From positions 13,206,001 to 13,270,000 of the forward strand of contig OZ024748.1 of NCBI GenBank assembly GCA_964016885.1: DNA of 64,000 nucleotides. The letters run 5' to 3'. A program made the translations under genes and the position numbers. The notes beneath the pieces are model-generated. The model saw only the letters and a list, made by a program, of their open reading frames with translations, ran no database searches and was not told the DNA's origin. Shown here piece after piece: positions 10,031 through 63,073 of the stretch (within the stretch, counting starts at the first letter, position 1; the number at the start of each line of letters is the position of its first letter). Source of the DNA: Eledone cirrhosa. Taxonomy: Eukaryota.

Positions 10031-10135
10031 AAATATATAAAGCAGTATATCTATAATTTGTAATAAACGAAGCCAAATGTTACATATTTGACTTAATTAT
10101 ATATATATATATATATATAAGTTTTAATATAGATG

Positions 10136-10186
10136 AGATTCTACAGGACTAGAACTGTTTCATTCTTTAGAAATCATCAGGAATCT
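10136..10186 (-). ncRNA. Type I hammerhead ribozyme in a ~80 bp element between (TA)n arrays
   Basis: Minus strand reads AGAUUC CUGAUGA u UUCU aa AGAA u GAAA CAG uucuaguc CUG UA|GAAUCU: 6-bp stem I, both core boxes, 4-bp stem III, GUA cleavage triplet. Stem II is closed by U-U rather than R-Y. Confidence 0.7.
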
Positions 10187-10399
10187 GGGTATCAATACAT
10201 ATATATATATAAATATATATATATAAATATATATAAATATATATAAATATATATATATATATATATATATATATATATATATATATATATATATATATAT
10301 ATATATATATAAAAATATATATATACATATATATAATATATGTATATATATAAATATATATATATGCATATATATATAAATATATATATATATACATAG

Positions 10400-10590
10400 A
10401 ATTGTTTCTACTTTTGGCACAAGGCCAGCAGATACCCAGTACATTACTGGTACATTATTTTATCGACCCCGTAAGGATGAAAGGCAAAGTTAACCTCGGC
10501 GGGATTTGAACTCAGAATGGCAAGGGCCGTAACTCAATGCGTCAAAGCATGGTGTCCGACCCTCTACCGATACTGCCAAACCACCGCCCT
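10400..10590 (-). mobile_element. tRNA-derived SINE, main family (full length)
   Basis: A-box-like TGGCAGTATCGG, B-box GAGTTCAAATCC, central ACTTTGCCTTTCATCCTTACGGGGTCGATAAAAT, tail GGCCTTGTGCCAAAAGTAGAAACAATT; more than 20 copies or fragments in the window. Confidence 0.9.
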
Positions 10591-12074
10591 TAAATGAAAA
10601 TCATAATGAAGAAGTGGGATAGGGGGGGGGGGTTAAACGAGAGAGAAAGAGAGGACTAAAATAGTATTGAGCGTGTGTTTGAACACAGTACATTGACCCC
10701 ACAGATGCTGTACACAGGCTGAGATATTGTAACATAAATACCCATGAAATTAAAACTCGTGCACACCTTCAGAATACAATGACTAAAACCAAGTTCAAAT
10801 TGAAACATTCGCCCATCTACTTAGATCCACTAAGACACACATATTCAAACACATACAGACATATATAACACACTGACTTGCATACACACATAGATAACAC
10901 GCTGGCTTGCGTACACAGACATACACACATACCTAACACACTGATTTGCATACAGAGACATACACACTCACAGATGTCCGGAAATATACCTATCTAGCCA
11001 GATGCACTCAGAGAAGCACTCACACTTAAGTCTTTACTTTGATCCGAACACGTTCTCAAACGATTGACTACCAATAAACATGTACACGTGTGTGTAAGTC
11101 TGTAGTGCACGTGTACGTTTATATATATATATATATATACATATGTATATGTGTGTGTGTGTGTGTGTGTGTGTGTAGGGGTGTGCATAATGTACGTATG
11201 TATGCATGTATATATGCCTGTCTATATATATATATATATATATATATATATATATATATAATAAACATAATGAGGGCTTAACAAATCGTCCTTGTATATA
11301 TATATGTATATACACATATATACATATATACATATACACACACACACACCTATATATATATATATATATATATATATATATACATACATACATATATATA
11401 TATATATATATATATATATATATATATATGAACAAATATATATTTATACATGTACATATAGTTACACAGACGCACCCACACCCACACAGATACACTCACG
11501 TACATACACACACACACATACACAGACACACACATACACACACACACACAAAGACACAGACACACACACAAACAAAAAATGACGGTAAAAACTAAACACG
11601 GCGTTCTTATTTTAAAGTGGACAGCTTTTCGGAAACCGAAGTTTCCCAGGACCTCTTAAGATGTTTTTAGGATCAAACAAACGTTTGTTTGTCACCCACT
11701 GCCGAAATATATAAAAATATCGGATAGATGAATAAGGAAAGGAAGCTAAGGTTGTTGATTACAATATAGACCCCTTACTCCTTACTCCCTCCCAATTTAA
11801 GGGAACAAATGCCTGGCACATGCAGTGTGTTTTGGGGGTTTGTAGTTTGGGGTGGTGTCATCGTACACTATTTTCCGGACAACTTGTTTCAATATATTTT
11901 AGTGAAGATATAAAAAAAATAAATGAATGAAATAAGATAAATTGAAATAAAATAAAATAAAATAAAATAAAATAAAATAAAATAAAATAAAATATGGGTG
12001 TAGGGAGCAGGCAAAGGTGGTGGTGGTGGGGGAGCAGTGAGCTGGAACAAGGAGAGTAAAGGTTCTCTTGTATG

Positions 12075-13480
12075 AAGGTGGTGTTAGTGATGGTGATGTT
12101 GGCGGTGCTGGTGGTGGTGGAAGTGTTGATGTTGATGGTGGTAGTGATGTTTGTGGTGGTGGTGGTGGTGGAATTGTTGATGTTGATAGTGATGGTGGTG
12201 GTGGTGGTGGAAGTGTTGATTCTGATGTTGGTAGTAGTGATGATGGTGGTGGTGGTGGAAGTGTTGATTCTGATGTTGGTAGTAGTGGTGATGATGATGG
12301 TGGTGGTGGTGGAAGTGTTGATGTTGATAGTGGTGGTGGTGGTGGTGGAAGTGTTGATTCTGATGTTGGTAGTAGTGGTGATGATGATGGTGGTGGTGGT
12401 GGAAGTGTTGATTCTGATGTTGGTAGTAGTGATGATGGTGGTGGTGGTGGTGGTGGAAGTGTTGATGTTGATAGTGATGGTGATGGTGGTGGAAGTGTTG
12501 ATTCTGATGTTGGTAGTAGTGGTGATGATGATGGTGGTGGTGGTGGAAGTGTTGATGTTGATAGTGGTGGTGGTGGTGGTGGAAGTGTTGATTCTGATGT
12601 TGGTAGTAGTGGTGATGATGATGGTGGTGGTGGTGGAAGTGTTGATTCTGATGTTGGTAGTAGTGGTGATGATGGTGATGATGGTGGTGGTTGAACTGTT
12701 GATGTTGATAGTGATGGTGGTGGTGGTGGAAGTGTTGATTCTGATGTTGGTAGTAGTGGTGATGATGGTGATGATGGTGGTGGTTGAACTGTTGATGTTG
12801 ATAGTGATGGTGGTGGTAGTGGTTGAATTGTTGATGCTGATGTTGATGGTAGTGGTTGAGGTGTTGATGATGGTGGTGTTGATTTCAATGATGTTGTTTA
12901 TGTCATTAGTGATGGTGATATTATTAGTAGTGATTGTGGTAGTATTACTAATCGTTGTAATAGTGGAGAAGGGGGAGAAGGAAAAGAAGGAGAAGGACAA
13001 GAAGAAGAAGAAGGAAAGATTATAAGCAAAGTATGAAGGAAGTGTACGGAGTCAGGACTCAGCTATATTCGTTGTTGTAAGTTCGTATTGTTGTTCTTGT
13101 TATTGTTGTTGTATTTTCTTTTCTGTTGTTGTTGTTGTTGCTGCTGTTGTGTAGTGTTACCGCTATTGTTGTTGTCACTGCTGTTGTTGTTGTTGTTACT
13201 GCTGTTGTGTAGTGTTACCGCTATTGTTGTTGTCACTGCTGTTGTTGTTGCTGTTGTTGCTGTTGTGTAGTGTTACCACTATTGTTGTTGTCACTACTGT
13301 TGTTGTTGCTGTTGCTGCTGTTGTGTAGTGTTACCACTATTGTTGTTGTCACTACTGTCACTGCTGTTGTTGTTGTTGTTATTGTTGTTGTTGCCGTCGT
13401 TGCTGTTGTTGTTAGAGTTGTTTTGTCGTTGTTATTGCTGTTGTAGTCATAGTGCTGTCGTTGTTGCTATTGTAGTCTTG
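12075..13480. repeat. GGT/GAT-derived minisatellite followed by TTG-derived minisatellite
   Basis: Repeated ggaagtgttgattctgatgttggtagtagt; repeated tgtgtagtgttacc(g/a)ctattgttgttgtcact. Confidence 0.9.
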
Positions 13481-61202: not shown

Positions 61203-62089
61203 ATATTTTAATTTTGGCGGTGGCTTAAGTATTCATTATACCTCGCCGTAATTTATTTCTACACAAAATATCAATAAACAGACACTGCACCTATATTACA
61301 TAGAATATTTTGTGTACAATACAAAACCAAACCAAAGGAAAGCATTGCACCTGCCCAGGGGACAATGTACCGCGCTCATTATTAAATAATATCGATAATA
61401 ACAACGATTTTTAATATTTTAATGGTTTCTATAGGCCTTGTACCTACGTTAGAAATCGATATTTTAATGTCTGTTTTAATTATAGTAATTTATTTGTTTA
61501 AAATAATATTATGTAGTTTTTTTAATTAATTACAGATGTTGCTATTCCGGTTGTCGTTCTTGTTGTTGTTATTGTTGCTGTTATTATTATTATTGGTGTT
61601 GTTGTTCTTCTCGCTGTTGTTGTTGTGTGAATATTAACTAGGATGTTTGAAATACTAAATATAGTTGAACGTCCTGAACAATTCGAAAAACTATAAAATC
61701 ACAGACATTATGGAAGTTAAACATTAATAATAACAACAATATAATGAGATATTTACACGAGGAAAAATAAAGAAAAAAAACTAATGCAAGTGTGGAGGCG
61801 AAGATGGGGATTGATTAAAAAAAATCACAAATCTCGATGGAAAAAAAATGGCGGCTAAATATGGAGTGGTCTCTTAGTTATTATTCTGTTTGGTTAATTT
61901 GTTGGTTAACGTTTATATTTCGACTATTATTACGTTTGGATTGGTTGGTTTCACAATGCTGTATATAGTTTTGTAAATGTCAAGAATAAGGTTTAACAGT
62001 TAACGTTTTGTAGGCCATGAAATCTAATTAACAAGGCATTCTTGGAAAGTGCAATTCAGGACAATGATTAAGAATTAAATTTGTTACTA

Positions 62090-62240
62090 CAGGTAAAATT
62101 CCGTGATAACGAATACCATTATAACGAATTTTTCAGAATAACAATTTTTTTTCAATCCCCCGTCAATCTCGTTATGAAGAATATTTCGTTACAACGAATT
62201 TGTTATACACCGTGAATTTCGTTATAACGGAATTTCACTG
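62090..62240. mobile_element. Tc1/mariner-pogo (Tigger-like) MITE
   Basis: TA|CAGGTAAAATTCCGTGATAACGAA ... TTCGTTATAACGGAATTTCACTG|TA: imperfect ~23-bp TIRs, TA duplication, internal ATAACGAA repeats. Confidence 0.8.
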
Positions 62241-62417
62241 TAATACATTTTCTTATATTAATTTGTCCGCTAGTTGTGGAACTACTACCAAACTCGTCTC
62301 ATGGACTGAGTGCTCTACTACTACGGTTATAACCCTCCAATGTTCTACTATTATATATATATATATATATATATATATATATATATATATATATATATAT
62401 ATATATATATATATATA

Positions 62418-62576
62418 TAACGAAGGAAGTGTGGTAGGGAACCAGGTAACCAGGTGGACCATATCCCACCAGAGTACTCGGTAATGTGAGTAGTAGAGTG
62501 GGTAATAGGAAAATAGTCCAGAAATAGCTGTTGAAACGGCTTGAGCTCTGCTCTCGGAGTTCTGACTGTTTTCCTA
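62418..62576. mobile_element. Family B diverged copy with internal inversion
   Basis: taacgaaggaagtgtggt...agtagagtgggtaataggaa (inverted tail) followed by ttgaaacggcttgagctc...tttcctat; (TA)n on both sides. Confidence 0.65.
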
Positions 62577-62810
62577 TATATATATATATATATATATATA
62601 TATATATATATATAGAATGCCGTTAGCTTCTTGCTAAAACAATCTCTATACCTCTCATTTATATATATATATATATATATTTATTAAAATAAATTTATTT
62701 TAATAAATATTTGCTCTACGGTTCTTATATATCTGATATATATTTATCCTTATCGAGCCCTCTTTGGATTTTAGTCTTCAAATTTATTATTATTACTATA
62801 TATATATATA

Positions 62811-63073
62811 GTAACAACACACGCACAAAAACAAGATGGCGTAGGACAGAACAAAGGAGAGGCACAAAAAACAAAGAAAAGAACCCCCAGTCACTGAAGA
62901 GGTCACAGAATGTGTGACAAAAGAACTTAACAACAATCTGGTTGTGGAACCCACCAACCAACCGGAAATTTATAAATTCCTAAATTTATAAATTTATTAT
63001 AATAAATTGAAGTGAAAGCAACTGGTACGTGTGTTTCTTATTGGCAACATGACCCTCCCAAAGTATAACAATA
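62811..63073 (+). mobile_element. Family A element, second copy
   Basis: Aligns by eye along ~250 bp with the reverse complement of 22097-22360; bounded on both sides by (TA)n. Confidence 0.7.
62890..62931 (+). ncRNA. Degenerate hammerhead (G12A), homolog of the 22253-22295 motif
   Basis: GTCA CTGAAGA G GTCAC agaatgt GTGAC AAAA gaactt: GAAA box changed to AAAA and the 3' strand of stem I is disrupted. Confidence 0.55.

Follow-up and report, generated by a model that had tools for sequence, protein, structure and literature searches.

Hammerhead-bearing islands in a 64-kb stretch of the Eledone cirrhosa genome as probable 3′ ends of coding Penelope-like elements, the shortest of which recurs as the unit of a large tandem array

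Several short non-coding islands carrying hammerhead ribozyme motifs lie among the (TA)n repeats of a 64,000-nucleotide stretch of the Eledone cirrhosa genome (assembly GCA_964016885.1, contig OZ024748.1; C8:13,206,001-13,270,000 of the 3.0-Gb genome), this whole stretch being called the window here. These islands are very probably the hammerhead-bearing 3′ pseudo-long terminal repeat (pLTR) ends of five coding families of Penelope-like elements (PLEs), designated A to E, and are likely 5′-truncated insertions into (TA)n; the shortest of them, a 78-bp island belonging to family A, recurs as the repeat unit of a satellite of ~377 kb that has likely grown by duplication at the DNA level. A first-pass annotation, based on the letters of the window, had listed five hammerheads. 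All five cores were found again on re-reading—at 10180, 22291, 32174 and 35073 on the minus strand and at 62894 on the plus strand, the last one mutated as described, with GAAA changed to AAAA and stem I broken—but two further motifs, at 47177 and 34653 on the plus strand, had been overlooked. The full set of type I minimal hammerhead features, i.e. the CUGANGA and GAAA core segments and the UH, is present in the copies of families A (10180), B (22291), C (32174) and D (35073) and in the family E copy at 47177, and is incomplete at 62894 and 34653.

The assignment is carried by copies situated elsewhere in the genome. Each of the A to E islands is 89-98% identical to the ribozyme-bearing 3′ pLTR of a coding PLE, and all five families run upstream, in other copies, into an open reading frame (ORF) for a reverse transcriptase (RT) and a GIY-YIG endonuclease (EN); the islands are therefore read as 5′-truncated ends of coding elements, and the earlier proposal of non-autonomous families cannot be kept as the principal description. 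The recognition of several families of Penelope-like type I minimal hammerheads was sound, there being five families, each of them tied to a PLE parent, and the proposed search for full-length copies joined to RT/GIY-YIG ORFs yielded such copies, with both pLTRs, for families A and E. That the window itself holds no RT or GIY-YIG partner was likewise confirmed, tblastn with four parent proteins giving zero matches there. The islands are dispersed repeats, many copies being mutually 95-100% identical, and the first-look candidates number 3,740 for B, 663 for C, 623 for E, 36 for D and, in the case of A, 18 with the 86-nt query and 1,771 with its upstream part.

Concerning the individual parents, the family A element in locus L344 consists of a hammerhead (1252), the tail, an ORF (1292-3565, 758 open codons), a microsatellite-rich untranslated region (UTR) and a second hammerhead (5952), the same layout of hammerhead, ORF (821 codons open) and hammerhead being seen for family E in L396. 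The A hammerhead occurs in seven of the eight stretches L338-L345; in six of them it shares the strand of the EN and lies 2.0-6.4 kb downstream of the EN end. In seven loci the family C copy is preceded on its own strand, at a distance of 1.37-1.44 kb, by a Hydra-type EN. For family B, L177 holds a near full-length, frameshifted RT-GIY-YIG ORF with the hammerhead ~180 nt past the stop codon and an inverted arm on the 5′ side, and for family D the parent in L170 comprises both RT and EN. Among the Pfam models, GIY-YIG was recognized at 24 bits (cut-off 22.6), RVT_1 remaining below its cut-off. Judged from translations and alignment, the A, C and E parents carry the marks of the Hydra clade (CxCX5C, CxxC and CxH, without CCHH; DKT and the RW motif in A and E, neither being seen for C) and are, by these sequence marks, of Hydra type, with the RWK-like motif appearing as RWR and RWT. 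The B and D parents, with a CX4CxxC linker and CCHH, are on the same kind of evidence of Neptune/Nematis type, i.e. from either of the two clades. A Hydra-type ORF in L172 and L176 was considered as the parent of family C and rejected, since its strand does not fit and the motif at its own 3′ end is another one. It may be added that the 3′ UTR of family A contains 1.5-4 kb of TA/TG microsatellite-like DNA common to its copies (L344:3565-5500, L248, L338-L343); the element thus carries and spreads TA/TG repeats in addition to inserting into them.

The copies exhibit the footprint of PLE insertion: they are truncated on the 5′ side, their arms stand back to back and they end at (TA)n. Their 3′ ends fall into two classes, one terminating at the pLTR end and the other continuing with a tail of 55-100 nt, which in full copies leads on into the 5′ UTR of the ORF; pLTRs in direct orientation are present in L344 and L396, and inverted arms in all five families. 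Among loci that were mostly query-selected, with the array loci set aside here and in the counts of 5′ extent, 162 of 173 tail ends (A 31/35, B 42/44, C 30/33, E 59/61) have (TA)4+ after them, compared with 2.9% of controls and 5 of 40 ends of short interspersed elements (SINEs). The 5′ extent varies in B, D and A. In families C and E there is a fixed start ~65-75 nt upstream of the core, shared by 35 of 50 C copies and 51 of 64 E copies, these shares being counted apart from loci L346-L401 and biased upward by queries that themselves began at the fixed point. An apparent fixed 5′ end in family B was rejected as an artefact of a deletion in the reference copy.

The link with (TA)n and the high density of the motifs, both proposed from the window, hold for the genome at large. 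The relaxed type I descriptor was written after the present motifs had been seen, and the count in the window is therefore partly circular: requiring a stem I of at least 4 bp gives 4 motifs, the average over 30 block-wise dinucleotide shuffles being 0.03, and relaxing this to at least 2 bp gives 5, with a shuffled average of 0.1. A cleaner sample was provided by 39 ten-kb stretches at round coordinates on large contigs (390 kb), which contain 29 hammerheads against a mean of 0.125 in eight shuffles. This is one per 13.4 kb, in agreement with the one per 13 kb suggested for the window, and extrapolates to ~220,000 hammerheads per genome (bootstrap 138,000-323,000), a lower bound, since the CUGANGA descriptor misses variant cores. 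Within 300 nt downstream, (TA)4+ was found for 25 of the 29 sampled hammerheads and for 23% of 4,193 control positions. As a separate observation, this descriptor overlooks the hammerhead-like motif, built on a U3-A8 core, that terminates a Hydra-type family of very high abundance (L176:4880-4930, L289, L291, L297, L306; 55,082 first-look candidates at the protein level); a search of the window for variant cores, U3-A8 and others, found none.

With regard to the folds, family A has a U-U at 10.1/11.1 and a self-complementary helix III, family B a 4-bp stem I, a stem II of 6 bp preceded by an additional unpaired G and a predicted CUU cleavage triplet, family C a 12-bp stem I and a near-palindromic helix III, family D a stem II of 6 bp preceded by an additional unpaired U and a stem I of just 2 bp, and family E, in the copy at 47177, a perfectly palindromic helix III, the stems I of both C and E being long. 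The predicted energies of the helix III self-duplex are −12.8 (A), −10.5 (E), −2.2 (C), −1.2 (D) and +1.4 kcal/mol (B), making the duplex strong in A and E, weak in C and D and lacking in B, and helix III is self-complementary at 15 of the 29 sampled sites. The claim that pairing is kept while the stems differ was supported for one group and hardly for the other. Across nine related sequences of the C/E group 98% of the cells are paired, both partners vary in 7 of 17 pairs and none of 500 shuffles reaches the covariation score, although the structure was drawn on the window copy of C, a choice that gives it an advantage over slid controls; in six A-type sequences the core and stem II are invariant, with a variable loop, and the covariation signal is weak. 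In a survey of hammerhead clusters covering loci other than the array and the five of the window, the U-U at 10.1-11.1 recurs in several families with differing stems II; it is a known natural variant according to the available part of the source (PMC3088659).

The 78-bp island of family A led, through many matches of its query on C28, to a head-to-tail array at C28:30,496,750-30,873,716, ~377 kb long and comprising ~4,800 units (L202-L210, L174, L175, L186-L189, L213-L217). The unit starts a short way ahead of stem I and reaches the end of the pLTR, which corresponds to positions 10120-10198 of the window, and the units differ from the window copy by 3.2% on average. Of the 377 kb, 157 kb were read, and every probe between the edges held units. 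The exact unit junction has 1,567 matches genome-wide, all on one strand, 1,726 being expected from the C28 array alone. Among 1,970 ungapped units—the counts leave out units with insertions or deletions—the core is intact in 1,561 (79%), and the core together with the stems in 1,038. As to selection on the ribozyme within the array, the core diverges by 3.0%, compared with 4.8% elsewhere, a marginal difference (p 0.049, or 0.073 when base-matched, the units not being independent). An excess of A-to-G changes was sought in the array units and none was found, leaving no sign there of copying from edited RNA. At its left edge, the array is bordered by (TA)n and then by an inverted pLTR of family A with its tail, i.e. 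a PLE footprint, and at its right edge it passes into a short tandem of ~320-bp units belonging to another hammerhead family, which ends at (TA)n. Periodicities of a higher order, at 18, 23, 38 and 73 units, and an insertion present twice argue for growth at the DNA level. A second array of family A, with 7.5 units and the same junction, is located at C1:350200300-350200900 (L403:1288-1870), flanked on one side by an inverted long UTR of family E and on the other by unrelated sequence, without clean family A PLE ends. When 20 adjacent unit pairs were folded, the double hammerhead was predicted at ~−16 kcal/mol against −9.6 kcal/mol for two monomers, but the minimum-energy fold lay at ~−23 kcal/mol with the outer stem shifted, a mixed result. 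RNA from the array is predicted to cut itself. Among the sequencing runs listed for the array there is none from RNA, and no description of this array was found in open-access literature text.

Other explanations of the islands have to be weighed against these data. The motifs are not chance matches in AT-rich DNA, a reading left with next to no probability and refuted by a ~120-230-fold excess over shuffles, by the existence of multi-copy families and by invariant cores accompanied by variable loops and compensatory stems; what could be said for it is that the five sites, like the hammerhead families as such, are absent from the best 150 of 636 Rfam rows for the window, and that stem I of family D has only 2 bp. 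It should be noted that the Rfam results for the window are dominated by matches of TA repeats to miRNA models, and that the 18 genome matches to RF00163 represent a family distinct from A to E. An origin of the islands as monomers of circular-RNA retrozymes that propagate themselves and have no relation to the local coding elements is likewise very unlikely. The tandem arrangement of family A at two places would suit such an origin, but colinearity with PLE 3′ UTRs, at 89-98%, extends to every one of the five families, so that independence from coding elements was not found; in the loci read, B, C, D and E are free of short tandem arrays, save one spaced pair of D (624 bp), and a single array can account for nearly all the A junction matches, as far as the first 100 of the 1,567 places show. 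For families B to E the independent circular-RNA reading is thus largely refuted. A more restricted proposal holds that the 78-nt A unit is a live, near-minimal circular-RNA retroelement, the double hammerheads shredding the array transcripts, the 78-nt pieces circularizing and the intact Hydra-type parent recopying them into new sites, as in the 7.5-unit copy on C1. This is regarded as rather unlikely. If it were true, a self-cleaving satellite of ~4,800 ribozymes would have been found while its parent and the scar of its insertion are still there.

A quite conceivable alternative, if somewhat short of an even chance, is that short copies of C and E, those of D perhaps included, represent true non-autonomous mini-elements, with RNAs of ~250-270 nt that have their own fixed start and are copied in trans by the protein of the parent PLE, a view compatible with the favoured one as far as A and B are concerned. 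It is supported by the fixed start of most C and E copies, seen also in E copies met by chance in the loci of other families, by inverted pairs whose two arms often reach the same fixed point, by an 8-nt duplicated start common to the short E copies, and by the many short E copies that are 100% identical over 172-174 nt. On the other hand, long ORF-linked forms are also common (1,081 and 1,540 first-look candidates), transcription of the parent could begin at the fixed point, or this could be a stop hot spot at AT-rich or palindromic sequence, and the queries beginning at that point have biased the sample. The fixed start of C and E may therefore reflect non-autonomous subfamilies, a parent transcript start or a stopping hot spot. 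What remains of the retrozyme idea of the first-pass annotation is accordingly divided: the islands proved colinear with coding PLEs, yet the starts of C and E may mark short non-autonomous subfamilies, and the A monomer does now exist as a tandem array.

The view of the islands as truncated PLE ends, with A as the satellite unit, has its own weak points. Random truncation does not predict a fixed start, at which the C and E copies mostly begin, and the 8-nt duplication at that start is lacking in the long E copies. No full-length C element was recovered among the loci read, which gave the EN and a part of the thumb only. The covariation in the A group is slight, 42 of 500 shuffles scoring as high. 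Most of the copy statistics come from loci chosen as best matches to the queries, and ~58% of the array lies outside the base-by-base reading.

As to the mechanism, the GIY-YIG endonuclease would nick (TA)n, after which the RT would prime at both target ends and usually stop early, leaving one or two short arms. By analogy with published PLE work, the minimal hammerheads may cut weakly, as dimers formed through the palindromic helix III, and free the unit RNA from tandem precursors. The seed of the array was likely a PLE insertion holding a few joined 78-nt units. In vitro, minimal hammerheads are described as cutting weakly and only as dimers in the accessible part of one study (PMC4209133), and one of nine frog retrozyme dimers cut in the corresponding part of another (bioRxiv 10.64898/2026.07.22.740005); for this reason the single copies of the window are probably remnants, inert as ribozymes.

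The islands of the window may now be described in order. The family A island (10120..10198, minus strand), the 78-bp 3′ tip of the pLTR of a Hydra-type PLE, is flanked by two (TA)n runs and is 94-97% identical to both pLTRs of L344; its hammerhead occupies 10186-10136, with the core from 10180 and a predicted cut after GUA (10142). Adjacent to it, at 10027..10100 on the plus strand, there is the 3′ half of a hammerhead of a sixth family (GAAA-TATATA-, the stem I arm and flank), 96% identical over 74 nt to a copy in L142, its 5′ half being replaced by a 23-bp tandem repeat in five copies (9916-10032) directly upstream. Family B is represented by a 5′-truncated pLTR with tail from a Neptune/Nematis-type PLE (22034..22361, minus strand, core 22291; 94-95% to L177) and by an older, mutated copy (62814..63084, plus strand, core 62894, G12 changed to A; 89% to L177) that ends at (TA)n. 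The family C copy (32080..32243, minus strand, core 32174) is a short pLTR copy of a Hydra-type PLE that begins at the fixed 5′ point of the family and is 94% identical to L398 and 98% to L054. Family E occurs twice on the plus strand: as a truncated copy (34463..34703; 93-97% to L396), in which an inverted tail (34463-34586) is joined to a direct pLTR piece with the core at 34653 lost after GAAA, and as a complete one (47076..47277; 96% to both L396 pLTRs) with its hammerhead at 47169-47239, the core at 47177 and a short inverted tail end preceding it. The family D copy (34805..35210, minus strand, core 35073; 95% to L170) combines a pLTR end of a Neptune/Nematis-type PLE (35140-34805) with an inverted tail arm (~35152-35210).

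Some other features of the window deserve mention. More short islands between TA runs, at 27969-28188, 42078-42156, 44636-44851 and 62421-62614, match tail or end pieces situated beside PLE ends in other loci, and one recurring element among them makes long inverted repeats. A SINE-like dispersed repeat is found at 7893-8000, 10400-10497, 19686-20114 and ~15 more places, once as a 207-bp tandem pair; of 40 sampled copies, only 5 have (TA)n after the 3′ end. A tRNA-Val(GAC)-like sequence on the minus strand at 60610-60681 (ARAGORN; Rfam tRNA 41.4 bits) could represent the head of a SINE or a pseudogene.

The presence of hammerheads in PLE ends, as observed in the window, is an arrangement already published for minimal hammerheads and PLEs. 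It is the array that is distinctive, for its size, its minimal unit and its surviving parent; in it the route proposed to lead from a PLE end to a ribozyme satellite can be traced, at a length ~16 times that of the longest array in the available part of the 2026 survey cited below, and it is an easy system for testing dimeric cleavage. The ~220,000 motifs, together with young intact parents, supply many natural constructs for studying the function of PLE hammerheads.

Compared with the minimal hammerheads of PLEs, described in the accessible part of Cervera and de la Pena (2014; PMC4209133) as having a short helix I, a long helix II after an unpaired base and a minimal or palindromic helix III, and as occurring mostly as single copies from truncated PLEs or as opposite-strand pairs 100-700 bp apart, with a variant of 2-bp helix I in D. 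virilis, the present ones share the short stem I and the unpaired base before stem II (B and D) and, in D, the 2-bp helix I of D. virilis, and they too are mostly single copies left by truncated PLEs, with pairs on opposite strands. They differ in their abundance, ~220,000 per genome against the 2,000-9,000 quoted there (obtained with other descriptors), in the long stems I of C and E (8-12 bp) and in the U-U at 10.1-11.1 of A. The Hydra-clade PLEs, as far as covered by the available text of Craig et al. (2021; PMC8557442), include Hydra-1_Obim of Octopus bimaculoides, listed with a (TA)n preference. The A, C and E parents have in common with this clade the C-terminal GIY-YIG, the CxCX5C linker, CxxC and CxH, the insertion into (TA)n and a hammerhead in the pLTR, and those of A and E also DKT and the RW motif, whereas RWR and RWT stand in place of RWK, the hammerheads are unlike that listed for Hydra-1_Obim, and the units are longer owing to 3′ UTRs of 1.2-4.8 kb, that of family A being mostly TA/TG microsatellite. 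From the same text, the B and D parents share with Neptune and Nematis the CX4CxxC linker, the CCHH of the endonuclease, its C-terminal position and the microsatellite bias; the database protein nearest to one of the elements is an unannotated prediction from Octopus vulgaris (69%).

Finally, the non-LTR retrozymes have units of 51-972 bp in up to 300 copies in a 35-genome survey (bioRxiv 10.64898/2026.07.22.740005, available part), a preprint of 2026 according to whose proposal they arise from a PLE end and are then amplified locally, and coral arrays reach up to 62 units in the accessible text of another report (PMC7229834). The A array, unlike the single copies of the window, shares with them tandem non-coding units derived from a PLE pLTR, each with a type I hammerhead. 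It departs from them in its ~4,800 units, against the maxima of 300 in the survey and 62 in coral given by these partial sources, in a unit that barely exceeds the ribozyme, and in having both its coding parent and its PLE-type left edge still present.

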